Assembly: GCA_963718615.1 (NCBI GenBank)
Contig: OY970368.1
Location: 4,608,001 to 4,672,000, forward strand
DNA: 64,000 bases
Direction: 5' to 3'
Source: an uncultured cyanobacterium
Lineage (GTDB): Bacteria; Cyanobacteriota; Cyanobacteriia; PCC-9006; JAAUQQ01
Of the stretch, positions 1,662 through 13,894 are shown piece after piece. Made by a program: the position numbers and the translations under genes. The notes beneath the pieces are model-generated. The model was not told where the DNA came from. It worked only from the letters and a program-made list of their open reading frames with translations, and did not search any database. Position 1 is the first letter of the stretch, and each line of letters starts with the position of its first letter.

Positions 1662-2083
1662 ATGACGCCGAAAATATCAACCGGCTACACCTGAAGCTAT
1701 TACCAGACTTTCTCTGGCTGCTGTACCAGCGTCTACGGCGGCGGGGTTTTGTGTTGGGTCCGGAGGATTATTCGGCATTGCAGCAGTCGTTGCGGTTGGG
1801 ATTTGGTTGGTCGTCCCAGGGGGCGTTGCGGGAGTTGTGTGGGTCGCTGTGGGCGAAGTCGGTGCGGGAGCGGGAGGCGTTGTTTGCGCTGTTTGATCAG
1901 CTTGTTCCGCAGGAGGAGGGTTGGGAATTTGAGGGGGACGAGGCAATAGGAGATGAGGTAATAGGAGAGTTAGGGGAGGTTAGGACTGAGAGGATTGATG
2001 AGCCAGCGAAATCTGAGGCAGAGACGTTCGGTGTTTTGCTCAACATTCATGCGTCGTTCAAACACGCTACTACGTTCAGATAA
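1658..2083 (+). pseudogene. N-terminal fragment of vWA-type partner of MoxR system, truncated at island edge (~2020)
   Basis: LYQRLRRRGFVLGPEDY...LRELCGSLWAKS resembles N-termini of MoxR-associated vWA proteins; base composition switches near 2030. Confidence 0.5.
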
Positions 2084-2158
2084 CCAAGATCGTGCGGCTA
2101 TTGTATCAGTGCTTACTTATGTACTCTTGTGGAAGTCGCCCGAGAGTAAACATCGCAC

Positions 2159-3196
2159 ATGAAACGATATGCAAATCTACCACTCAGTTTGCCTCGAGTA
2201 GACTTAGGGCTTATTCCTAAGGGATATCAAGGTACCCAAGCAACACTAGCACATATCAAATCATTAATTCGAAAAGGTGCGAAGGACTTCTATGTTCGCC
2301 AGAAGTCGATTGATATTTTGCTAGAAAAATCAGTCAAAGCCAAAGACTACCTTGGAGAAATTAGAGCAATCTTTGAGTGGGTACAAAAAACAATTCGATA
2401 CACGAAAGATCCCTTTCGTGTAGAGATGCTCCACTCTGCTCGGCGTCTATTAGAATTGCGCGCGGGTGATTGCGATGATATGACAATTCTACTCGGTTCT
2501 ATGCTGGAATCCATCGGGCATCCCGTACGCCTAGTCGTAACTGGCCCTGATCCGCTACGGCCTAAACTCTTTAGCCATATTTATCTGGAAGTCTTTCACC
2601 AAGGGCATTGGATTCCACTCGACGCCACGATGCCACATCCTATGGGGTGGGAGCCCAAAACCTTTATTAAACAAGTTATTCATATCGAGAGGAGCTTACA
2701 CATGTTGAATCAACATCAAGAACTGCATAGGTCTACAGATCTATCGTCGCTACCTGATTGGCTAACAAACTTGATTGTCAACATTCACAAGGGAAGTATT
2801 AAGCCCAAAGATCAACGAATTAAACGTTTGTTGGGCTTGCTACATCAACGACAGTTACAGCATCAGAACCGCTGGCTGATAAGAACCTTAGAGTTTATAC
2901 ATCAGCGAGGACTGTCTCACCACCCTCGCCCTGAGCTAGCCAAACGAGTTGAAAATTTGATGCATCACTGGAAAATACTATCAGCAGCATTGGATTCATC
3001 AACATCGCAACAAAATTCCACCTATCCTACCATCACTATTCCAGTTAAATCGGCATCGAAAGCTTCTATAAAAAAGGACAAAATCTTACAGGCAAGACCT
3101 GTCCGCCCTGTAAAAGTTAGCCCTGTTCCAGGGGTGACGGTAAGGCGTGTTGCAACAATCAATCAACACTCGGTTCCATCTCAAAAGCCATTATGA
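2159..3196 (+). CDS. Transglutaminase-like cysteine protease with basic C-terminal extension
   Basis: Triad motifs GDCDD (Cys), FSHIY (His), WIPLDAT (Asp); IFEWVQKTIRYTKDP motif. Confidence 0.8.
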   Translation: MKRYANLPLSLPRVDLGLIPKGYQGTQATLAHIKSLIRKGAKDFYVRQKSIDILLEKSVKAKDYLGEIRAIFEWVQKTIRYTKDPFRVEMLHSARRLLELRAGDCDDMTILLGSMLESIGHPVRLVVTGPDPLRPKLFSHIYLEVFHQGHWIPLDATMPHPMGWEPKTFIKQVIHIERSLHMLNQHQELHRSTDLSSLPDWLTNLIVNIHKGSIKPKDQRIKRLLGLLHQRQLQHQNRWLIRTLEFIHQRGLSHHPRPELAKRVENLMHHWKILSAALDSSTSQQNSTYPTITIPVKSASKASIKKDKILQARPVRPVKVSPVPGVTVRRVATINQHSVPSQKPL

Positions 3197-3549
3197 GACC
3201 TATTCAGAATTCAGGTAACTACGATCGCCTGCTTCCAGCCCAATCAGCCACTCCCAGTAAACTCAATCAGGAAGCCAAGCAAGGAAAAGAACTCTATCGA
3301 AAGTTTAATCACTTCGAGGCATCTCAAACGTTCACAATCCAACATTCTCGGCTGATACCTCCCGTTGTTGTTAGCCTTGGTGAGCTTGTCGGAATTATCT
3401 ACCGATCTGATAAAGATCAACTCGGAAAACCGCAAGTCTATATCCATTTTATGCAAGATCCGCCTCAGTTAGTCAGTAACGTCGAAGGGAGTCAGCTTTA
3501 TATCGTAGGTGGTAGTTATCACATCACTTGTAGAGGCATTGAGGGCTGA
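3193..3549 (+). CDS. Hypothetical protein of putative capsid-like operon
   Basis: ATGA overlap with the upstream gene; beta-rich, ends QLYIVGGSYHITCRGIEG. Confidence 0.7.
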   Translation: MRPIQNSGNYDRLLPAQSATPSKLNQEAKQGKELYRKFNHFEASQTFTIQHSRLIPPVVVSLGELVGIIYRSDKDQLGKPQVYIHFMQDPPQLVSNVEGSQLYIVGGSYHITCRGIEG

Positions 3550-3586
3550 TCTAATCGTTAACTTATAAACCTTGGAGGGAAATTAT

Positions 3587-3868
3587 ATGACATGGGGTAA
3601 GCCATTAGGACTAGATGAGTTGATGATTATCAATCCAGGGCCATCCAATGGGGATGCCTACTTATTGGGCGAAGATGGAACGCTTTACCAGGTTCAGGGA
3701 TTGGGTGAGATAGGCGAATTACCCCAGGATCAACAGTACTTATTGGGTGAGGATGGCACGCTGTATCAAGTTCAGGGGATTGGTCTTGGAGGACGGCCTT
3801 ATCCCCTGTCTGGAAGGCATAGCTGTCAATGTAGAAATCGATCAGCTAGCACTGAAGGTTCCTACTGA
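3587..3868 (+). CDS. Small protein with two YLLGEDGTLYQVQG(L/I)G repeats
   Basis: GGAGG RBS before ATG 3587; internal repeat shared with 4734..5660. Confidence 0.75.
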   Translation: MTWGKPLGLDELMIINPGPSNGDAYLLGEDGTLYQVQGLGEIGELPQDQQYLLGEDGTLYQVQGIGLGGRPYPLSGRHSCQCRNRSASTEGSY

Positions 3869-3944
3869 AAGCTAGCGTTAAGCAGACTGATGATCAATGC
3901 TCACTGACCAACTATAAAGACATTATTGAACAAGGAGTTCGATC

Positions 3945-4694
3945 GTGGGAAAAGTACAAGGTGTTAAGGAAAAGCTTCACTATCCGATTTACGACGCTTT
4001 TTTTGTAAAGGGTCGCCCCTCACCTGATCAGCTTAAAACTGATACCAATAAACCTCAAACCTTCATGGAGGTGATGACTGATCCGAGAATGATCCGTTTC
4101 TTTGTGGATGTTCAGAACAAAACTCGACTGGAAACAAACTTGCAGGCATCGGGTGTTTTGCCTAGTCTCAATACATTTGAGGCTAGGGCTTTACGAGTTG
4201 TCGTTAGTCCACCCTGTTTAGCAGCTCCGCCTACATCAATCGAAAAAGTTCTAGCTATCACTGAATCGTATTGTAAAAACAGTTCTCCAACAGCAGGGAA
4301 GCTTGAAAATGACTCGACAAAAAGAGAACTGTTCGAGAAGCTAAAAAGCGAATATAGTCAATGCAATGGAGACGCTAATCTTGTTCTTTCTGAGTTGATT
4401 TACAACTCCGTGACAACCTTGCTGGTGGGCGAGAAAACTATGATTGAAATGCCGACATACTTCTTTCCGGGTGGTGCCGGTGTTTATCCAGGAAATGGCA
4501 GTATTTCTAATCATGGTGAACCAGATCCTATGGCAACGTTTCGATTCGCTGAACCTGTCATTATCGAGCCTCAGCAAAATTTTCGAGTCGAAATGCTATT
4601 CCCTCAGGGTGTTCCAAAAATTCTGTCTCAAGTCGAAGGTGTATTTAGAATTTGGGTTGTGCTAGATGGTTACTTAACAAGAGATGTACAGTAG
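3945..4694 (+). CDS. Putative single jelly-roll major capsid-like protein
   Basis: AGGAG RBS; beta-strand pattern PIYD...KTRLETNL.SG.LP...F...EPVIIEPQQNFRVEM...IWVVLDGYL; fold is inferred, not computed. Confidence 0.5.
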   Translation: MGKVQGVKEKLHYPIYDAFFVKGRPSPDQLKTDTNKPQTFMEVMTDPRMIRFFVDVQNKTRLETNLQASGVLPSLNTFEARALRVVVSPPCLAAPPTSIEKVLAITESYCKNSSPTAGKLENDSTKRELFEKLKSEYSQCNGDANLVLSELIYNSVTTLLVGEKTMIEMPTYFFPGGAGVYPGNGSISNHGEPDPMATFRFAEPVIIEPQQNFRVEMLFPQGVPKILSQVEGVFRIWVVLDGYLTRDVQ

Positions 4695-4733
4695 GGCTCT
4701 CAATTAGGTCGAAATTATTTAGGAGAGAATACA

Positions 4734-5660
4734 ATGAATCACATGATGGGTACAGGCTATCTCGGCGAAACGAAAATGGGGCCTGATGGCAATCTGTACG
4801 AATGGGTGGAGGGCATTGATGGACTGGGAAATTCGATTGGTTTCTGGAGTAAGTTCAAAAAAATTGGCAAAAGAGCCCTAAGAACGGCTGCTCGCTATCA
4901 TCCTGCTGTTCAAGCATTGAAGCTCGTAAGACGTGGTATTTCTGGCACCGATGGACTAGGGGCTTTGTACCAATCTCCTGATGGTAGCCTCTACCAAATG
5001 CAGGGGCTCGGTGTCGATGAAGAGGGTATGGGTGAAGTCGGTCTGGAAGCAGATGACTTAACTCAAATGATGGGTTTTGGCAGCTATGTGGGTGAAACGC
5101 GCGTAGGGCCTGATGGCAATACTTATCAATGGGTTCAGGGCGTGGATGGTTTAGGCAATCCGATTGGCTTTTGGAAACGCTTTAAACGGTTTGCGCGTAA
5201 GGCAAGACGCTTTGTCCGTAAGGCGTTGCCAGTTGTGCAACAGTTTGCCCCCCTTATTCCTGGCGGAGCGGTGGTGTCATCAGCACTGAGAACTGCTACG
5301 CCGTTTCTTAGACGGGCAGGAGTGGCGGGCGATGGCTTGGGTGCCCTATACGAGGCTCCAGACGGAACCTTGTACCAAATGCAGGGACCAGCAGATGAGG
5401 AAGCCATGCAAGGATTTGCCGAAGATGAGGACATGGCGGGTTTTGCTGATGAAGAGTTACAGGGGTTTGCCGAGGATGAAGAGATGGCGGGCTTTGCCGA
5501 AGATGAAATGGGCGAGTTTGCAGATGATGAGGTCTTGCAGGGCTATGTTCGGCAGGATGGCATGGATGGATTAGCAGCCTATGTACCACAACAGCCACAG
5601 AGCACACCTTGGTATCAACAACCCAGTCAAACTCCCAAAATTTGGGAAGCCCCCTGGTAG
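4734..5660 (+). CDS. Repeat protein with GLG motifs, two cationic amphipathic helices and acidic GFA(E/D) repeats (putative internal/scaffold protein)
   Basis: Duplicated module Y(L/V)GET..GPDGN.Y.WV.G.DGLGN.IGFW + basic helix + DGLGALY..PDG.LYQMQG; acidic tail repeats. Confidence 0.75.
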   Translation: MNHMMGTGYLGETKMGPDGNLYEWVEGIDGLGNSIGFWSKFKKIGKRALRTAARYHPAVQALKLVRRGISGTDGLGALYQSPDGSLYQMQGLGVDEEGMGEVGLEADDLTQMMGFGSYVGETRVGPDGNTYQWVQGVDGLGNPIGFWKRFKRFARKARRFVRKALPVVQQFAPLIPGGAVVSSALRTATPFLRRAGVAGDGLGALYEAPDGTLYQMQGPADEEAMQGFAEDEDMAGFADEELQGFAEDEEMAGFAEDEMGEFADDEVLQGYVRQDGMDGLAAYVPQQPQSTPWYQQPSQTPKIWEAPW

Positions 5661-5734
5661 AAGAACGATAGAAGAGTTTGTGAGCGACTTATTTCTATCC
5701 AGAAAGCACTGAGAAATGTAACGAGGTCAGTTCC

Positions 5735-6484
5735 ATGCAATTTCAGCCAGCTCCAACCCAGATGAGGCGGGCATCCCCTTCTATGACAGGGGGAATAGCA
5801 ATGCCTGTTGATGGCCCAACAACGAAGGAAATTCCCTATGATTATGTAGCAAAGTTTGCGCTTCAAGGGAAGGCTGCCAATCGAATTCAGGATGTTATCA
5901 ACATTAGTGTTGAGGGCTCTTTTGTAGCGACGGCGATCGCCTACAGTTTCATTCCTGCATCGCTACCGATCAGAAATCGTATACTGGAGCCAACTCCCTC
6001 ACCAGAGCCAACTCCCTCACCAGAGCCTATTGTAAGAGAAGTTCCTCCTGAGAGGAGGAGGGATTCAAATCCTCTGCTCGCGTTACTCGAACCTTTCGTA
6101 ACATCCTCCCTGATTCCGCAGAATACTCCGACGGAAAGCCAGAGGAAGCAACTCGAACTTCGGCAGAATCAGCAGCTTGAATTGCTGCAAATGGTTGCTG
6201 AATGTTCGCTGATTAAATTATGCGGCATTCACTTTAAATACAGCATTGTAGATAGTGGCAGCGGTCGAGAGTTGCAAAATCAACCGATTCACAATATTGC
6301 AGGATTAGGAGAGTCGGGGGGCGACAGGCCCTTCCGCCCCTTGGCTAAGCCGATGATGTTTATGCCGCGCTCAACTATCCGCATTGAAGTTGAGGAGATT
6401 TCCGAAGGGCCACTCTATGCTGGGGCGGAACTCTATGTCGTCTTGCATGGTTATAAGATGCTGGGTTATGGCACGGGGGTGTGA
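5735..6484 (+). CDS. Second putative jelly-roll capsid-like protein
   Basis: Beta-rich: INISVEGSFVATAI...IVDSGSGRELQNQP...PLAKPMMFMPRSTIRIEV...LYVVLHGYK; C-terminal strand parallels WVVLDGYL of 3945..4694. Confidence 0.5.
   Translation: MQFQPAPTQMRRASPSMTGGIAMPVDGPTTKEIPYDYVAKFALQGKAANRIQDVINISVEGSFVATAIAYSFIPASLPIRNRILEPTPSPEPTPSPEPIVREVPPERRRDSNPLLALLEPFVTSSLIPQNTPTESQRKQLELRQNQQLELLQMVAECSLIKLCGIHFKYSIVDSGSGRELQNQPIHNIAGLGESGGDRPFRPLAKPMMFMPRSTIRIEVEEISEGPLYAGAELYVVLHGYKMLGYGTGV
5986..6028 (+). repeat. 18-bp tandem repeat encoding EPTPSP x2 inside CDS
   Basis: gagccaactccctcacca repeated twice. Confidence 0.8.
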
Positions 6485-6942
6485 TGAGTCTTTGTCAGGT
6501 TTGTGGTGTTCCTCTAGATGCGGACTATTTCGATAGTGCGAGTATCAAGCCTGCTCCTCAAAATGTGGGTGAAGAGGTGGAGTTGGCTCAATATCATCTA
6601 CATCCTCAATATTGTGGGGCTTTGCTCTGCTTTGCTCAGTATGTCAAACCTGAGGATGAGGCTTTGGCAAATAGCAATATTTTGGAAACGCCTGGGTATG
6701 AATGGGCTGTGCTTTGCAATAACCAAGCCCGTGATCCCTATCTGCCAACGAATCTCATCTTAAATCCTTGGGGACAAAACAATTTGCCTGTTCACTTGCG
6801 ATTGGAGGAGGGCTGTGTGGTGAGGTTGGTGGTACGTAGGGTGTCAGCTTCACCGGAACCGATGCTGCAAAAGGTGGGGGGGCGGTTGCAAGGTCGCTAT
6901 TGGTACAACACCAATTATGGTGGTTTGCCGAATCGCTTATAG
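6484..6942 (+). CDS. Small beta-rich protein, putative minor capsid/penton-like, N-terminal CxxC
   Basis: TGATG coupling; PVHLRLEEGCVVRLVV...VGGRLQGRYWY. Confidence 0.5.
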   Translation: MSLCQVCGVPLDADYFDSASIKPAPQNVGEEVELAQYHLHPQYCGALLCFAQYVKPEDEALANSNILETPGYEWAVLCNNQARDPYLPTNLILNPWGQNNLPVHLRLEEGCVVRLVVRRVSASPEPMLQKVGGRLQGRYWYNTNYGGLPNRL

Positions 6943-6969
6943 ACACTGAATCACAAGAGAGAAAGAGAG

Positions 6970-8544
6970 ATGTATATCTATACTGACAAGCCTTTATCGG
7001 GAATTGAGGAGCCGTCAGTAGGGCTAGCGGGAGATCTCACAGAAAATTTCAACTTAAGTGAGTTTGCCTCTCGGGGAACGCCTGTACCTGCACAGTATCT
7101 CAGTAATGTGAATCGCTTGGCTAAAAATCTACAAGCTCTCAGAAATTATTTGGGAAAGTCAATTCATATTAATTCTGGATATCGTACACTAGCTCACAAC
7201 AGTAGTGTGAATGGGGCGACAACGAGTCAGCATTTACTAGCCAAGGCAGCTGATATTACCGTCAAAGGCATGATTCCAAGTGAGGTATATTGTGCCATTG
7301 AAACATTAATTGCCAATGGCCAAATGCAGCAAGGTGGATTAGGGCTTTATGCCACGTTCGTACATTACGACGTGCGAGATGCCAGAGCTCGTTGGAAAGG
7401 TAAAGGGTCTCTGGTGCCGAGTTGTGGACTCACACCTACAAAAACAATAAATACATTAGATCTGGAAAAAGCCGTTATAAAAAACAGCGAGTGGAGCCAA
7501 AAGCTGGGTTGGTCAGCCTATCTCGGCGCAATTATGGCCTTGGTAGGATATGTGCCATTGCCTTTTCCTAGTCTGAAAAACTTTGCAGAGGCGATCGCCC
7601 GTTGGCAAAGTCATCAAGGATTACTGCCCGCAGATGGCATAATTGGACCTAAAACTTGGGAGAGAATAAAAAAGAATACTCAAATACAACAACCTTTACC
7701 AATCAATCAAAAGCCAGCTAGATTAAGTATAGATCCTGAGACCCTTGAAAAGATTGGTCAATACGCCTCAATTATTGAACGAATTGCTCGCGATAAAGAC
7801 GTTGATCCAAGCATCATAAAAGGCATTATTGCAGCAGAATCAGGAGGTGACCGCTATAAAGAAGCGCCTAGTGGATATAAAGGCTTAATGCAAGCAAAAA
7901 AAACAACAGATCAATTTGAACCTGAAATTAGTATTCACGATGGAGTTGAAAAATTCAAGAAATTTAGAGAAAACTGGCTAGGCCCTCGACTTAAAAAGCT
8001 TGGGATTGATTTGAACGTTCTGGACAAGAAAACCATGGTTGCTTGGGTCACTACAGCTTACAATGCTGGTCATGTGACTGTTCTAAAAGCCGTGGAATAT
8101 GCTACGGCTTCAGGCGATCCTAAAAATTGGATGGCTCCAGAACATTATCAGCGAGCATTAATTTTTTCTGGAGGATACAGTATAAGCACTGCTAAGAAAT
8201 CTTTCTTTAAAAAATTGAGTGAAATTGAGTTAGTGGAAGAGGTAGCAAGGATAAAGCATACGAACATAAACGATCTTCAGAAAGGATATTCTTTTTCAAA
8301 CAAATGGGACATTGAGAAACTCAAGCAAGTCCTCATTAAAGAGGCCGCTAAGGAACAGAAACATTGGAAATTTAGCGGGAAAAAATGTCAATGGTGGCAA
8401 TGCCCTGATCCACCTTTGCTACAAGATATTCGCAGGCATTCATCTCGTTTATTGCTATATGCGGTTGAATTTAAGCGCGAAAATACTCCCAAGTACACTG
8501 GCAAAATCATCAAATATATGAATTATTACGATAAAGCAGATTGA
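6970..8544 (+). CDS. Multidomain peptidoglycan hydrolase: peptidase M15A + PG-binding + lytic transglycosylase (SLT-like)
   Basis: INSGYR..HN....SQHLLAKAADI...FVHYDVR (M15A); WQ..QGL.ADGIIGPKTW (PG-binding); IIAAESGG..GLMQ..AYNAG (SLT). Confidence 0.85.
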   Translation: MYIYTDKPLSGIEEPSVGLAGDLTENFNLSEFASRGTPVPAQYLSNVNRLAKNLQALRNYLGKSIHINSGYRTLAHNSSVNGATTSQHLLAKAADITVKGMIPSEVYCAIETLIANGQMQQGGLGLYATFVHYDVRDARARWKGKGSLVPSCGLTPTKTINTLDLEKAVIKNSEWSQKLGWSAYLGAIMALVGYVPLPFPSLKNFAEAIARWQSHQGLLPADGIIGPKTWERIKKNTQIQQPLPINQKPARLSIDPETLEKIGQYASIIERIARDKDVDPSIIKGIIAAESGGDRYKEAPSGYKGLMQAKKTTDQFEPEISIHDGVEKFKKFRENWLGPRLKKLGIDLNVLDKKTMVAWVTTAYNAGHVTVLKAVEYATASGDPKNWMAPEHYQRALIFSGGYSISTAKKSFFKKLSEIELVEEVARIKHTNINDLQKGYSFSNKWDIEKLKQVLIKEAAKEQKHWKFSGKKCQWWQCPDPPLLQDIRRHSSRLLLYAVEFKRENTPKYTGKIIKYMNYYDKAD

Positions 8545-8723
8545 AGAAGGAAAATACGTACTAGAACAGACACAAAGTAGTAAGCAGGCTAAATATCATC
8601 AGGAACTCGAAAAAACAGCATCTTGATGTCAAAATTAGTGCTCTGAGAACCGAGCGTCGTCGAAGTCTATGCTTGCAGGCATGCTATTAAATTGAAAATT
8701 AGTAAGAGGTTGTAAACCTTGGC

Positions 8724-9653
8724 ATGTACATACTATTGGGACACAAATCAGCGGGAAATCAGTTAGCAGGACTTGGGCAAACGAAAGTAGTAGAAACTCA
8801 TTCACAAAGCTCAACCTCAGCTTTGACTTTAGCTGTCCCTAAAATGGTTAAAGTTGCCGAAACCTCTCCTTCGTTCAGTACTCTATACGTTGGGATTGAT
8901 CTGAATCCCGTTTGGGAAAACCGGAAAATTGATGGCAAATGGAAGCAGACTCGTGCCTATGCCTCACCCATGACGGGCATCTTCATTCCTAAAACCTATA
9001 TCCCTCGATCAACCGTCAACTTGATCTTGTATCTACATGGGTTTAAAGCGCCTTGTGGACTCGATGAAAAAGCGACGATTAACCAATACTGGAGCCAGGG
9101 TTACTTTAAATGGCTAAGAGAAGCCGTTAATGATAGTGGCCAAAATGTGATTCTTGTTGCACCAACATTGGGGCCTAGATCAGGTGCAGGCAAATTGATT
9201 CAATCGGGAGGATTCAATGCGTTTATCGATCAAGTTTTAGCGGCTCTCAACGCCTACAACCCGCTCAACAAAATTCCTTTTATTAATCGATTTACTCGCA
9301 ACCAATCGATAGGCAATATCATATTAGCTTGTCATTCTGGCGGTGGGAAACCAATGCGGGCGATCGCATCTCTAAATCCTAGTACCGACAGCTATGCCGC
9401 CCAGATCAAAGAATGCTGGGGCTTTGACTGCTTGTATAGCGGAGATGACGCCAACGCATGGCGCACATGGGCAAGCGCCCATCCCCAATCCAAACTTTTT
9501 GTCTATTACAAAAATTCTACCCATCGACAATCGGAACAGCTTCGAGACCAACGCCCTCACCTTAGTAACGTCTTTGTTCAAAAGTCCAACGCAAAGAATC
9601 ACTGCTCTGTTCCCAGTCACCATTGGAAAGAACGTCTTGTAAACATATCGTAG
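8724..9653 (+). CDS. Alpha/beta-hydrolase fold protein
   Basis: LILYLHG, nucleophile elbow ACHSGGG, GFDCLY, late His in NHCSVP. Confidence 0.7.
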   Translation: MYILLGHKSAGNQLAGLGQTKVVETHSQSSTSALTLAVPKMVKVAETSPSFSTLYVGIDLNPVWENRKIDGKWKQTRAYASPMTGIFIPKTYIPRSTVNLILYLHGFKAPCGLDEKATINQYWSQGYFKWLREAVNDSGQNVILVAPTLGPRSGAGKLIQSGGFNAFIDQVLAALNAYNPLNKIPFINRFTRNQSIGNIILACHSGGGKPMRAIASLNPSTDSYAAQIKECWGFDCLYSGDDANAWRTWASAHPQSKLFVYYKNSTHRQSEQLRDQRPHLSNVFVQKSNAKNHCSVPSHHWKERLVNIS

Positions 9654-9665
9654 GAGAGCATAAAT

Positions 9666-10493
9666 ATGTATCTATTAACAGATAAACAGATGGATGGACT
9701 AGGTAAATCTGCAAGCCCTATTGATTTAGAACATGCAGTTCAACGCAATCTTCACTATGGGAAGGTGCTTCAGTGGCAGCCTAAACTAGGCGCTATTATG
9801 CGCCTAGTCGATTTTTCGCCTCGGCTTTCTGGACTGATTTGGGAAAATTTAAAGAGCTTTGCTGAGGCAGTGGCTAAGTGGCAGCAGGAACAACGGATAT
9901 CGCCACCTGATGGCATTATCGGGCCAAAAACCTGGGCGAAAATGCAGCTTCTGATTCCAGATACTATCCAGCCTGCGCCATCTGCCCAACCCTCTGGGTC
10001 TTTAAATTTAATTCCCTTAGAGTCACCAGGCGGTGGTCGTCTTAAAGACAAAAGTGAGCTAAAGGCATCTGATCAAGTTACCTTTAAACGCTATACCGGA
10101 ACAGAAACGGTGCCGCTTCATCGCCTTGCTGCCTCGGCTTGGGCAGCTTTGATTAGTGCAGCGCGGATGGATGGGATTGCTGAGCCCTTGTTACTACCGT
10201 CGTCGGGCTATCGTTCCGATCAAAGACAAGCCAAAGCATGGGCAAAAGCGCTCAAAAAGTATGGCACTAAGGAACTAGCCAGAAAGTGGGTCGCGCCACC
10301 AGGCAATAGTGCTCATCGGACGGGGCGGGCGATCGATTGTTGGCTCGGCCTGCGCAACGGTAGTGAAAATGTGACTAAATTGCGTCGGCAGCCTGCTTAT
10401 CAGTGGTTAGTGAAAAATGCTTCCCGATTCGGGTTTTATCCCTATTCAGCCGAACCTTGGCATTGGGAATATAATCCGCCTAATCTAGGCTAA
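9666..10493 (+). CDS. PG-binding domain + peptidase M15B (VanY-like D,D-peptidase)
   Basis: DGIIGPKTW; SGYRS..Q, APPGNSAHRTGRAID, EPWHWEY. Confidence 0.85.
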   Translation: MYLLTDKQMDGLGKSASPIDLEHAVQRNLHYGKVLQWQPKLGAIMRLVDFSPRLSGLIWENLKSFAEAVAKWQQEQRISPPDGIIGPKTWAKMQLLIPDTIQPAPSAQPSGSLNLIPLESPGGGRLKDKSELKASDQVTFKRYTGTETVPLHRLAASAWAALISAARMDGIAEPLLLPSSGYRSDQRQAKAWAKALKKYGTKELARKWVAPPGNSAHRTGRAIDCWLGLRNGSENVTKLRRQPAYQWLVKNASRFGFYPYSAEPWHWEYNPPNLG

Positions 10494-10608
10494 CACTGTC
10501 TATTGTGAGTCTCTAATGGATATTAAAGAAGGAATATTAGAGAAGCGATATTAGAGGTCTACTATCGGCTTGGCTAGATTACCCACGCCATTCTCCTGGT
10601 ACAGTGCA

Positions 10609-11511
10609 ATGAAGAACCTTTTCCCAAACCTATCAATTCATTTGAGTCAGCGAAAAGGGGCTTGCGCGCTCGATCCCAGCTTGTTTCTCTCCCACTATGG
10701 CCTGTTGCTGGTTCAATCGTTAGGAGAAGCGGTGGAACTTTGGATAGCGCGAGAATTATGGCATATTCTAGATAGCCCTGAATTTTATCTCAACCACCCA
10801 GAGCCGATTGCCCCCCAAACCAGCTTTGTGCCTCTTATCGGGACTCAAAAAGAAACGTATCAACGACAAGCTCAGAAAAACCGTGTGCAGGTACTTCAGC
10901 ATTGGCAGTCCTATCGAGCGAGAACCCCTCCAACCCAGCTCAACCTATGTTGGCTCGGCGATAAACCTGGAGAGTCTTACTTGCCAGACGGAACCGACCC
11001 AAATCTGATAGAGCATTGGGAAATATTAGCGCGATCGCTCGAAGCCCACGCCCCACAGAACACCCCTAGACTCGAGAATCCACTTACACCCGCCTTCCGA
11101 GACACTGCCGCCCTCGCTGCCGTTTTGGGGTCTGCCTTCATCCTCACGCATCAGACCTCAGATAGCCAAGAAACAATAGACACATCCCCAGAAATTTGCC
11201 AGGCACTCGAAGCATGGGGGATTCCATGCCACAAGATTGATCCTTTAGATACCATAGCTGCTCTAGAGCGAGACTATCTACTTCGGTTAATTATTGATAC
11301 AGGGTGCTCAAAACTTTTATGGGCAGGGCTAAACTTAGTCGTATTGCACTTAGTTGTGCCCCCTGTTGTTACTCCTTATCGTCAGGATCACTATCCGTGG
11401 AACACACATTCTTTACTGAAAGGGTGTGATTCAGAAAGACTAACGTGCATTGTTAATCCTTGGGAGGACGCACGAGGCTTCTGGTATGAGATCTCAGCCA
11501 GCTCAGCCTAA
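10609..11511 (+). CDS. Hypothetical protein upstream of LuxR regulator
   Basis: Long ORF (start 10570 or 10609); CALDPSL...ELWIARELWHILD, possibly degenerate PIN-like. Confidence 0.65.
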   Translation: MKNLFPNLSIHLSQRKGACALDPSLFLSHYGLLLVQSLGEAVELWIARELWHILDSPEFYLNHPEPIAPQTSFVPLIGTQKETYQRQAQKNRVQVLQHWQSYRARTPPTQLNLCWLGDKPGESYLPDGTDPNLIEHWEILARSLEAHAPQNTPRLENPLTPAFRDTAALAAVLGSAFILTHQTSDSQETIDTSPEICQALEAWGIPCHKIDPLDTIAALERDYLLRLIIDTGCSKLLWAGLNLVVLHLVVPPVVTPYRQDHYPWNTHSLLKGCDSERLTCIVNPWEDARGFWYEISASSA

Positions 11512-11612
11512 ATGGAAAGTAAGGTACCTGTGAAGGTACTATTCAGTCTTAGTTTTTCTCTCTAGGATCACAAGTATCAAAGTACGATCCTACCTTTAGC
11601 AGGGTTTTTATC

Positions 11613-12074
11613 ATGGGAAAGCAGGCAAGCTTAGATTTAAAGAAGCAGCGAGATCAAAGCTCTATGGCTTCCGCCATCGTAAGTGACTTCTATGTTAAAG
11701 GCCATCACTATTTGGTTGTTGATGGGAAAGGAAAACTTGAGGATGTGGCTGAGCAAGAATCAGGATTTTCTAGTTGTTGTGTAGACTCTATCGTTGCTCA
11801 ACTCCGTTTAAATGGCGAAGACTATGCCGTAATAGAAGTAAGGAGCTACTCTGTAAAAGAAAGCACTTTGGATGCGAGCACTCTTCTAACAGCCCGAGAA
11901 CTTCAGATTGTTCAATTGGTTGCGAAAGGATACGTTAACAAGCAAATCGCTCATCAGCTACAAATCAGTGAATGGACCGTTTCAACCCATCTTCGCCGAG
12001 TCTTTGCAAAGCTAGGCGTTGATAGCCGTGCTGCAATGGTCTACTCAGTACTCTGTCAAGTTAACCTTCCCTGA
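11613..12074 (+). CDS. LuxR/NarL-family HTH transcriptional regulator without receiver domain
   Basis: LTARELQIVQLVAKGYVNKQIAHQLQISEWTVSTHLRRVFAKLGVDSR. Confidence 0.9.
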   Translation: MGKQASLDLKKQRDQSSMASAIVSDFYVKGHHYLVVDGKGKLEDVAEQESGFSSCCVDSIVAQLRLNGEDYAVIEVRSYSVKESTLDASTLLTARELQIVQLVAKGYVNKQIAHQLQISEWTVSTHLRRVFAKLGVDSRAAMVYSVLCQVNLP

Positions 12075-12892: not shown

Positions 12893-13894
12893 ATGGAACT
12901 GACCGGAGCCCAACTTGCTCAATTCCAACAAGCCCTGCTCAGCGCCTTCCCCAGCAAAGCCAAGCTGGCGCAGATGGTCAGTTTTCACCTTGATGAGAAT
13001 TTGGATGCGATCGCCGGAGGCCAAAACCTCTCCGACCTCACCTTCAGCCTACTCCAACACCACCAAGCCCACGGCACCCTCGACCAACTCCTCAGCGCAG
13101 CACTCACAGAAAACCCCAATAACCCAACCCTACAAGACTTTGCAAGAGCACTCCAGAATCCAACCCCAAAACCAATACCCCCTAACGCAACCAGCACAAC
13201 CTTCACGCAAACCAGCTCCGGCGGCACCAACTTCCAAACCCAAGTGACCGGCGGACAAGTTCATCAAGCCCAGACCATCAATATCTACCACGGTTCTACC
13301 CCGCCCCACGACACAGCCTCACCCCGCGAAACAGCTCAAACTCCCGGCTACACCGAAAACGATCCAGCCCGCCGATATCTCAATAACGTTCTCAAAAAAC
13401 TCACCCAAAACGGCGCAACCACTCTCCCTTTAAGCGAAACCAACTCCACCCTCGATCTCATCGCCAAAATCACCGATTTCGAACCCGGTCTCGGCATGCG
13501 CGGCGACGCCTTCTTCCTCTTCGCCAGCTTCGACAGCCTCACCCCCGCCGGACTCCGCACCTACTCCGCCCAGTGCCTCAACCTCGCCCAAAGCTACCCC
13601 ACCTCATCCCCCGGACGCGCCATTTTCAACTTCCGAGTCCCCACCCGCTGCTGTTTCTCCGTCGCGATCGTCCAACAACTCGACAGCACCACCGCCACCA
13701 CCATCCGCAACAACAACCCCTTCAAAGATGCCGTAGACGTACTCTGGTACGAAATTCCCGTCATCTTCGACCTCAGTCAACGGCAACTCGTCTACTATCA
13801 AGCAGCCAGCGATTTCTGGGAGAACTTTCGCGGCGAAATTGCCTGGAAAAAACTGCGAGAAACCATTCAGCAACTTCTAGATTCTCAAGGCTAA
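12893..13894 (+). CDS. EAD1 (effector-associated domain 1) protein with unknown C-terminal domain
   Basis: N-terminus MELTGAQL..FQQALLSAFP....L.QMV.F.LDENLDAIA...L..A..ENP.N is EAD1-like. Confidence 0.75.
   Translation: MELTGAQLAQFQQALLSAFPSKAKLAQMVSFHLDENLDAIAGGQNLSDLTFSLLQHHQAHGTLDQLLSAALTENPNNPTLQDFARALQNPTPKPIPPNATSTTFTQTSSGGTNFQTQVTGGQVHQAQTINIYHGSTPPHDTASPRETAQTPGYTENDPARRYLNNVLKKLTQNGATTLPLSETNSTLDLIAKITDFEPGLGMRGDAFFLFASFDSLTPAGLRTYSAQCLNLAQSYPTSSPGRAIFNFRVPTRCCFSVAIVQQLDSTTATTIRNNNPFKDAVDVLWYEIPVIFDLSQRQLVYYQAASDFWENFRGEIAWKKLRETIQQLLDSQG

Follow-up and report, generated by a model that had tools for sequence, protein, structure and literature searches.

What is the function of a short glycine-containing motif, [MLIV]-x-G-[LFIY]-[GA], that recurs in a run of ten adjacent genes of an uncultured cyanobacterium? 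The genes, here termed g1 to g10, all lie head to tail on the plus strand at positions 2159-10493 of a stretch of 64,000 nucleotides (contig OY970368.1, positions 4,608,001 to 4,672,000; referred to as the window), and an earlier sequence-only reading took the motif for an operon-wide site resembling that of the adenoviral protease, at which the product of the first gene would trim a scaffold and release cargo from leaders. Based on our findings we suggest a different role. The first seven genes constitute a conserved core that may encode a capsid-like assembly, and genes following this core carry a tag of about ten residues at the N-terminus of their products, which, similar to the situation in phage T4, would serve as address label that recruits diverse cargo to the assembly. 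We consider this the best explanation of the data as a whole and assign it a probability of roughly 55%.

A conserved core is followed by variable genes that share an N-terminal tag

We scanned one genome per prokaryote species for relatives of g4 and obtained 39 loci (numbered with the prefix L, their phyla being read from the record titles), with a g4 identity of 46-74% (50-74% across phyla). The loci come from about ten groups, i.e. Cyanobacteria, Proteobacteria, Nitrospira, Chloroflexi, Acidobacteria, Gemmatimonadales, Rokubacteria, Actinobacteria (including Mycolicibacterium vaccae and Streptomyces), Armatimonadota, and Sorangium. The order g4-g5-g6-g7 is kept in 31 of the 39 loci, the other eight being short or partial records, and g1 is located upstream of g4-g7 wherever the record extends that far. 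The core thus consists of the seven genes g1-g7 (2159-6942). g8, g9, and g10 are not conserved among the loci, the flanks differ from locus to locus, and clustering of all open reading frames (ORFs) of the 39 loci yielded no further widely shared gene and neither a packaging ATPase nor a replication gene nor an integrase. Among 41 genomes of the window's relatives g4 is present in only one, the window's own, which points to horizontal transfer. Moreover, the G+C content of positions 2001-12000 is 0.43-0.47 as compared to 0.53 on either side, and this drop matches the module together with its cargo genes. The module thus constitutes a compact, horizontally moving chromosomal island.

Behind g7, successive genes in the various loci code for proteins that start with MY, followed by I, L, V, or M, two to eight further residues and GLGQ, i.e. 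they share the consensus M-Y-[ILV]-x(2-8)-G-L-G-Q (with M also found as third residue) within about ten residues at the N-terminus, often followed by Pro. For an unbiased count we applied a loose version of this pattern to plus-strand ORFs starting within 7 kb behind g7. The tag is present on 34 of these 110 ORFs, but on none of the 34 ORFs on the minus strand of the same regions, on 2 of 156 upstream of g1 and on 15 of the 4148 ORFs from the genome of the window (Fisher P 8e-13 and 5e-45). Compared with these three controls, its enrichment behind the core of the other genomes is 85-fold. The window's g8, g9, and g10 share an MY[IL] start; among the 4148 ORFs of the genome only 16 have an MY[ILVM] start, and three adjacent ones would occur by chance with a probability of about 6e-8.

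The leader of g9 comprises residues 1-19 (nucleotides 8724-8780) and ends in AGLGQ, that of g10 comprises residues 1-14 (nucleotides 9666-9707) and ends in DGLGK. Both genes start at the ATG that comes first after a stop codon located four to six codons upstream (six in the case of g9), a purine-rich or GGAG sequence precedes the starts of g8 and g10 (GGAG 12 nucleotides upstream in g10), and the gaps between g8 and g9 and between g9 and g10 are 180 and 13 nucleotides long. The idea that the cargo proteins carry leaders thus stands for g9 and g10, and dozens of unrelated downstream proteins in other loci have such short N-terminal leaders as well.

In a set of 60 cargo proteins picked by eye, 55 start with MY and 51 have I, L, V, or M as residue 3, and a MAFFT alignment of the set leaves MYxxxxxGLGQ as sole consensus at a mean column identity of 7%; 45 cargo N-termini, also selected by eye, yield MYxxxxxGLGQxP. 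The domains of these 60 proteins, e.g. OmpA (5), PG_binding_1 (4), Amidase_2 (2), Trypsin_2 (2), and M35 (2) as well as patatin, VanY, M15, SLT, GH75, M14, and M91 with one instance each, suggest that the cargo is made up of cell-envelope-attacking or degradative enzymes. The cargo of the window fits in, being three cell-wall hydrolases or esterase-like proteins: g8 contains PF08291, PF01471, and PF01464 and matches an endolysin in PHROGs (E 3.7e-32), and g10 contains PF02557 (E 1.9e-22) and PF01471. In g9 (8724-9653) an H-S-G-G stretch follows a hydrophobic strand, as in the nucleophile elbow of alpha/beta-hydrolases, and g9 might tentatively be viewed as alpha/beta-hydrolase-like.

In four proteobacterial and Nitrospira loci (L009 16077-17484, L012 19090-20225, L020 16339-18345, L034 14886-17050) the cargo array closes with the same two genes, coding for an unassigned protein of about 177 residues and an M23 peptidase of about 527 residues (PF01551, E 6.6e-16), both without the MY tag.

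The motif stands for several different elements

We then asked how often [MLIV]-x-G-[LFIY]-[GA] occurs, using a regular expression on g1-g10 (2628 residues) and, as background, on the 4148 ORFs of at least 150 residues of the window's own genome (1,669,107 residues), which contain 1668 matches, i.e. 1.0 per 1000 residues. Every instance listed in the sequence-only reading was recovered in its gene, i.e. VQGLG and VQGIG in g3, IDGLG, MQGLG, VDGLG, MQGFA, MAGFA (twice), LQGFA, and MDGLA in g5, IAGLG in g6, LAGLG in g9 (residue 14), and MDGLG in g10 (residue 9), and three further instances were found (MMGFG in g5, MLGYG in g6, and MDGIA at residue 168 of g10). Altogether the ten genes have 16 matches with 2.6 being expected (Poisson P 2e-8). 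However, 11 of the 16 fall in the two repeat proteins, g5 (9 versus 0.31 expected, P 5e-11) and g3 (2 versus 0.10 expected, P 0.004), whereas the other eight genes have 5 with 2.2 being expected (P 0.07). As g1, g2, g4, g7, and g8 have no match at all, the term 'operon-wide' is too strong, although the total clearly exceeds chance, and the proposed enrichment over the proteome holds for the whole set, g5, and g3 only.

Beyond g5 and g3 it is the position of the motif rather than its count that exceeds chance. The motif is several different things, namely a repeat unit in g5 and g3, the end of the tag in g9 and g10, and a buried loop in g6; MDGIA in g10 is a chance match. LAGLG in g9 and MDGLG in g10 form the end of the conserved tag described above.

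If the motif had no shared function, low-complexity repeats in g5 and g3 together with coincidence would have to explain all instances. The P of 0.07 outside the repeat proteins would agree with such a view, as would an unlinked gene of the same genome that starts with MYLTIDGLG, which codes for an ordinary HlyD-family protein and which we take to be a chance occurrence. Yet the tag is strongly enriched behind the core over all three controls, the window contains three adjacent MY[IL] starts, and the repeats are conserved over 120 g5 homologues, and chance as explanation is excluded.

g5 and g3 look like scaffold proteins

g5 contains two units with GLG-N-x-IGFW at their end, amphipathic stretches of basic character, two GLGALY...LYQMQG units, hydrophobic-x-G-[FL] repeats in an acidic array, and a C-terminal tail that is conserved. 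We identified 752 homologues at E<=1e-3 and analysed the repeats in the best 120 of them, which contain 2278 repeat instances. In these 120 proteins [MLIV]-x-G-[LFIY]-[GA] occurs 3-17 times each (median 9; 26 per 1000 residues versus 1.0 in the background) and hydrophobic-x-G-hydrophobic 10-25 times each (median 19; 55 per 1000 residues versus 7.8 in the genome). Position 2 of the repeat is mostly R (574 instances), Q (558 instances), or D, most homologues having L-R-G in place of L-Q-G, and position 5 is G in 31%, D in 25%, A in 22%, and E in 9% of the instances, i.e. G or A in 53% and D or E in 34%. The most common contexts are VQGVDGLGNP, DEELRGFAED, and DEELRGLDED. g3 contains two or three DG-x-LY-x-V-Q-G-[LIF] units, and in both proteins the motif often follows a Tyr, e.g. 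LY-x(3-6)-GLG. The likely start of g3 is the ATG at 3587, which is preceded by GGAGG, with a TTG at 3572 being also open. Thus, g5 and g3 look like scaffold proteins, and the earlier assignment of g5 as scaffold is borne out by the many repeats in its homologues.

In the actinobacterial loci (L028, L030, L031) g2 and g3 were not found as separate genes, and the N-terminus of g5 resembles the start of g3, which weakly suggests that g5 and g3 act together. A reading of g5 as multi-core precursor similar to that of a peptide that is made on ribosomes and modified after translation (RiPP) was set aside, the tagged proteins being full-size enzymes.

Is there a relation between the scaffold units and the cargo tag? 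The residues of the g5 unit Y-V-Q-G-V-D-G-L-G-N are spaced as in the most common cargo tag, Y-hydrophobic-x-x-x-[DE]-G-L-G-Q. In 34 of the 120 g5 homologues YVQGVDGLGN, the most common unit, is the best site for a matrix derived from 19 cargo tags, and the median best score is 5.9 for g5 homologues and 0.5 for background proteins. This likeness is suggestive, but not established.

Neither the repeats nor the tags follow the code of the adenoviral protease adenain, which is given as (M/I/L)XGX-G and (M/I/L)XGG-X (PMC3386624). Several instances of the window fit this code on paper, and adenovirus also has jelly-roll capsid proteins. However, the positions defining the code are conserved neither in the cargo tags, where only 7 of the 32 leaders having xxG[LIFY][GA] contain M, L, I, or V at the first position, nor in the g5 repeats, where the low share of G or A at the last position leaves hydrophobic-x-G-hydrophobic as conserved core. 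The likeness to the adenovirus site is therefore superficial. The tag has other conserved features, namely a Tyr as second residue, a hydrophobic residue following it, G-L-G, and usually Gln.

g4 and g6 are modelled as jelly-roll-like beta-sandwiches

AlphaFold2 models of g4 and g6 (249 residues each), based on alignments of 31 and 29 orthologues, respectively, have a mean predicted local distance difference test score (pLDDT) of 76.6 each and, in the case of g4, a predicted template modelling score (pTM) of 0.70. In both models a beta-sandwich is broken by a long helical insert, located where the length of the orthologues varies. Foldseek returned no structure from the PDB for g4 at E<=1e-3, its weaker list consisting mostly of jelly-roll capsid proteins, and an exhaustive aligner gave SPV1 (6oj0_T, Z 6.8, 130 residues aligned), SPMV (6.7), HHIV-2 (6.6), HCIV-1 (6.5), and P23-77 VP17 (6.0), all of them below 8, the aligner's caution line. 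In BFVD an unnamed viral protein (E 1.6e-4) is followed by circovirus-type capsid proteins as top named rows (about 2e-3). g6 gave 14 chains at Z of at least 8, among them SPMV (9.4, 125 aligned), the SPV1 major capsid protein (9.4, 122 aligned), STIV A223 (8.6), HCIV-1 (8.4), and P23-77 VP17 (8.3), but also the non-viral PHM domain (9.3). A jelly-roll fold of g4 and g6 is reasonably supported by these models, and we infer that both proteins may have a capsid-like function. By hhalign only their C-terminal halves align, and weakly so (probability 4%).

The IAGLG of g6, previously listed as potential site, is part of the segment HN-x-AGLG inside the sandwich, with G190, L191, and G192 being invariant in 29 sequences. 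As it belongs to an invariant segment within a folded sandwich it is unlikely to be a processing site. g7 has an invariant CxxC and a conserved C-terminus, GGR-x-x-GR-x-WY; neither hhalign against g4 and g6 nor the PDB revealed any similarity, and ESM Atlas gave unnamed clusters only. More generally, g2-g7 have no family in Pfam, NCBIfam, and PADLOC and no match at E<0.01 in PHROGs, and a sequence search of the PDB yielded nothing credible for g4, g5, g6, g7, and g9.

A predicted complex of g4 and g6 (alignments A1 and A2; score 0.00, mark 0.32) carries no weight for or against an interaction. A profile match of g4 to the designed proteins Ika8 and Ika4 (45 residues) was taken as spurious, no stretch passing alone. 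None of the eight longer forms of g4 is fused to g6: three look like read-throughs into neighbouring genes caused by frameshifts, and the others represent a divergent branch, in which inserts are larger or copies are arranged in tandem. To this branch belong P0122, P0124, and P0125, in which the helical or low-complexity inserts at this site are much larger, one of these proteins having a second copy in tandem.

The models are reminiscent of the paired vertical single-jelly-roll major capsid proteins of sphaerolipoviruses (HHIV-2, HCIV-1, SH1, P23-77) and SPV1, in that two neighbouring genes code for predicted beta-sandwiches that are distantly related. The module might be a remnant or virion module of a tailless jelly-roll virus, with the hydrolases acting as lysis or entry enzymes and the motif as virion maturation signal. 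The proximity of the models to capsid proteins of sphaerolipoviruses, SPV1, and satellite viruses would agree with this, as would the endolysin match of g8, the low G+C content of the island, and its presumed horizontal transfer. However, there is no sequence similarity to these viruses, the PHM-type sandwich scores equally well, and the comparison involves genes and models only. Moreover, the 39 loci contain no conserved genes beyond g1-g7, packaging ATPase, membrane-protein, and other viral genes being absent (family scans of g0-g12 detected no ATPase), the flanks vary, and no relative of g4 was found in IMG/VR (searched with two peptide patterns), in 50,697 phage records of INPHARED and in 72,556 plasmids of PLSDB. 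We thus regard a viral origin of this kind as highly improbable.

g1 has a transglutaminase fold and an invariant catalytic triad

The only Pfam family matched by g1 is Transglut_core (PF01841; E 1.7e-12, 48 bits at a cut-off of 23, residues 60-156). The motifs GDCDD, SHIY, and LDAT at residues 103, 139, and 154 are located within this match, and the triad is formed by Cys105 (32 of 32 orthologues), His140 (32 of 32), and Asp155 (31 of 32, the exception, L026, being a broken gene), so that the intact Cys-His-Asp set noticed earlier is confirmed. The nearest solved relative by sequence is 3isr (E 0.015), which is titled 'putative cysteine protease'. By contrast, g1 is unrelated to adenain (MEROPS C5), and no family of this kind was detected for the ten proteins in Pfam, PHROGs, and NCBIfam, i.e. 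the adenoviral analogy fails for the enzyme as it does for the site.

The Cys-His-Asp triad of the superfamily serves proteolysis and cross-linking alike, and for this reason the motif may be read as cut site as well as cross-linking site. Cleavage by g1, a candidate protease, is plausible; as far as can be told from the sequences, a docking role of the motif and a cross-linking role would fit the data equally well.

g2 seems to be a partner of g1. Its syntenic orthologues are 47-68% identical, and searches of Pfam, PHROGs, NCBIfam, and PADLOC gave no match, ESM Atlas no usable one. In five loci (L021-L024, L029) the ORF of g1 continues into the C-terminal signature of g2, resulting in a fusion of enzyme and partner; in lasso-peptide systems the B1 and B2 proteins can also be fused. 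In this respect, and in the presumed action of a papain/transglutaminase-like Cys enzyme on N-terminal leaders, g1 and g2 resemble B2 and its recognition partner B1. The B2 proteins are transglutaminase-fold leader proteases (10.1101/2022.04.06.487251), in line with the earlier remark that some proteins of this fold are proteases. In contrast to the lasso system, where the substrates are peptides, the tagged proteins are enzymes of 110-570 residues, there is no lasso cyclase, and g1 matches PF01841 without any lasso-type family.

Is the motif then mainly a cleavage code, which g1 reads in an adenain-like manner to chop the scaffold and to free cargo from leaders? The invariant triad and the title of 3isr would be compatible with this, and both in g5 and after the cargo tags the motif is found in linker-like, acidic or Pro-rich contexts. 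Small residues of the Gly type, as present in the motif, are usual at the cut sites of papain-like leader proteases. Furthermore, the lasso B2 proteins show that leader proteases of this fold exist, and in T4 one short peptide does both targeting and cutting. However, tags and repeats do not conserve the positions on which the adenain code depends, the strict N-terminal MY and the conserved Tyr would be needless for a mere cut site, g1 is no relative of adenain, and cleavage itself is only predicted. Hence, we think it unlikely that the motif is primarily a cut site.

Alternatively, g1 might be a true transglutaminase that uses the Gln residues of GLGQ and LYQ-x-QG as acyl donors and fixes the cargo by isopeptide bonds to Lys residues of shell or scaffold. 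The triad would fit this chemistry, half of the cargo tags considered (16 of 32) have a Gln directly after G[LIFY][GA], the g5 motif has Q at position 2 in 558 of its 2278 instances, and the invariant lysines K59 and K164 of g4 and K241 of g6 might serve as acceptors. On the other hand, half of the tags have E, K, D, A, or another residue instead of the Gln (K in g10), most g5 homologues have Arg where a donor Gln would be needed (574 instances), and the acceptor site is hypothetical, so that cross-linking as the function of g1 appears quite improbable.

Gene layout and neighbouring genes

The features of the island are compiled in Table 1. No RNA run was listed for 2159-10493. The genes g1 and g2 as well as g6 and g7 overlap by 4 nucleotides. 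g11 is a tentative member: it has a relative in the same position (59%) in L017 only and matches neither Pfam nor PADLOC. Relatives of g12 are found downstream of the module in L001, L002, and L017.

Table 1. Genes of the island, with positions in the window.
Gene	Position	Strand	Description
g1	2159..3196	+	transglutaminase-core cysteine enzyme, candidate cross-linker or processing protease; C-terminal to the core domain a helical region and a basic tail rich in Pro and Val
g2	3193..3549	+	118-residue core protein, no fold assigned
g3	3587..3868	+	small repeat protein, 2-3 DG-x-LY-x-x-x-G-[LIF]-G units
g4	3945..4694	+	jelly-roll-like beta-sandwich with long helical insert; most conserved protein of the core
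g5	4734..5660	+	repeat-rich scaffold-like protein
g6	5735..6484	+	second jelly-roll-like beta-sandwich with helical insert; distant paralogue of g4
g7	6481..6942	+	153-residue core protein, no fold assigned
g8	6970..8544	+	cargo 1: peptidase M15, peptidoglycan-binding domain, and lytic transglycosylase
g9	8724..9653	+	cargo 2, no known family
g10	9666..10493	+	cargo 3: peptidoglycan-binding domain and VanY-type D-Ala-D-Ala carboxypeptidase
g11	10570..11511	+	313 residues, no family; tentative island member
g12	11613..12074	+	LuxR/GerE-type regulator (PF00196, E 5.3e-19); found together with the module in loci of cyanobacteria

Directly upstream of the island, at 923-1174 and 1386-1661 on the plus strand, lies a gene pair of UPF0175 (E 3.8e-20) and DUF3368 (E 6.1e-16), which we take to resemble a small toxin-antitoxin-type pair. 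Just past the island, at 12893-13894 on the plus strand, a protein of 333 residues is encoded with an N-terminal Effector-associated domain 1 (EAD1, PF19955, E 1.1e-22), a domain that marks conflict systems of multicellular bacteria. In eight other loci the regulator is a BTAD/SARP-type transcriptional activator about 2.9 kb upstream of g4 (e.g. L037 7154-8089), as compared to the LuxR/GerE-type regulator downstream of the module in the cyanobacterial loci. In loci of Chloroflexi and Actinobacteria an SAM-dependent methyltransferase gene follows the module (L018 14538-15335, L030 13656-14423, L031 7259-7912, L033 5483-6271), the family being PF13649 (E 1.4e-14) as determined for L033.

Discussion

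Taken together, we suggest the following mechanism. g4, g6, and probably g7 may form a shell-like assembly around or upon a scaffold of g5 and g3. This scaffold would be multivalent, i.e. it would bind via its many copies of the motif, and cargo may enter the assembly as its N-terminal tag imitates one unit of the scaffold, as suggested by the common Y...GLG pattern. g1 would then process scaffold and tags, with cutting being the most likely kind of processing, yet the least supported step of the scheme; taken alone, cutting of scaffold and tags by g1 is a tentative assignment. The data themselves show a conserved and syntenic core, a tag that is specific for the genes following it, a repeat protein full of a related short motif, the enzyme families of the cargo, a Cys enzyme whose triad is invariant, and models of the beta-sandwich type. 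An even more detailed picture, in which bacteria of about ten phyla have a domesticated, genome-free shell of two virus-type single-jelly-roll proteins, i.e. an encapsulin counterpart in jelly-roll form, which has a multivalent scaffold, is loaded via a universal 10-residue tag with exchangeable effectors degrading cell wall, lipids, and proteins, matures by a transglutaminase-fold protease cutting scaffold and tags, and represents an as yet unrecognised class of toxin-carrying or lytic particle, is conceivable, although doubtful in its entirety.

Several observations weigh against recruitment of tagged cargo to a shell. As to the tag, 76 of the 110 downstream plus-strand ORFs lack it, although many of them are probably spurious or ordinary neighbours, and the leader of g8 is degenerate, its MYI start being followed by SGIEE...VGLAG in place of GLGQ. 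As the sets of 60 and 45 proteins were picked by eye, the consensus is partly circular, only the loose-pattern count being unbiased. Statistically, the tag resembles the scaffold unit only weakly: with the tag matrix, 0.8% of the g5 homologues reach a score of at least 10 as compared to 1.0% of the background proteins, and the g5 units of the window itself are outside the top 40 matches of the 19-tag matrix in the genome. As to the shell, the Z scores of g4 do not reach the aligner's caution line, and for g6 a non-viral domain ties with the best viral chain. Neither an export route nor a membrane component nor an immunity gene was identified, immunity genes without a systematic search. Finally, shell, tag binding, and cleavage are predictions from genes and models.

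The closest parallel is found in phage T4, where a 10-residue N-terminal peptide, the capsid targeting sequence (CTS), is described as the only conserved feature of diverse internal proteins, which it directs to the core during assembly, its first 10 residues being enough (PMC3012670, PMC9026906). The protease gp21 removes the 10-residue CTS and fragments the scaffold at L/I-x-E, and the determinants for targeting and processing adjoin within the peptide (PMC9026906). Apart from the adenovirus label, this corresponds to the idea of the earlier reading. Likewise, a short N-terminal peptide, MYxxxxxGLGQ, is the sole feature shared by the 60 hand-picked cargo proteins, and a single short motif is found both repeatedly in the scaffold and at the tag's end, a combination also described for T4. 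The components differ, however, as T4 uses an HK97-fold shell, a serine protease, and L/I-x-E, whereas the module has predicted beta-sandwiches, a transglutaminase fold, and Y...GLG(Q), and no phage genome surrounds it; neither a prohead serine protease nor an HK97-fold capsid protein was detected in scans of Pfam and PHROGs.

Encapsulins provide a second parallel, being chromosomal, horizontally spread shell genes located beside cargo genes whose products have a short terminal targeting peptide. Yet encapsulin cargo is ferritin-like or of the peroxidase type, whereas here it is lytic or degradative with the tag at the N-terminus, and the core additionally contains a scaffold and a Cys enzyme. 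The ten proteins gave no match to an HK97-fold, encapsulin, or Linocin family, g4 and g6 being modelled as beta-sandwiches with helical inserts. The arrays behind the core also resemble polymorphic toxins in that a constant N-terminal element is combined with variable enzymatic domains, but the element has only about ten residues.

The logic of the module, i.e. a shell, a terminal targeting peptide, and a processing enzyme, is known, whereas its parts are not: no family library, solved structure, or paper in the searched set, including PMC3482391, describes the module or its tag.

If our interpretation is correct, a tag of ten residues would suffice to mark any protein as passenger of a compact, portable assembly encoded by seven genes. 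This would constitute a shell-and-cargo system that shares neither sequence nor fold with encapsulins, microcompartments, and phage heads, and would imply that cells have co-opted jelly-roll capsid-type proteins just as they have HK97-type ones. Moreover, it would give a context to five unnamed protein families (g2, g4, g5, g6, and g7) and might provide a tool for loading proteins into particles. The cargo repertoire, comprising peptidoglycan hydrolases, OmpA-type wall binders, proteases, a patatin lipase, and a chitosanase-family enzyme, suggests that the assembly may serve the killing of competitors or controlled lysis in bacteria of soil, sediment, and mats.

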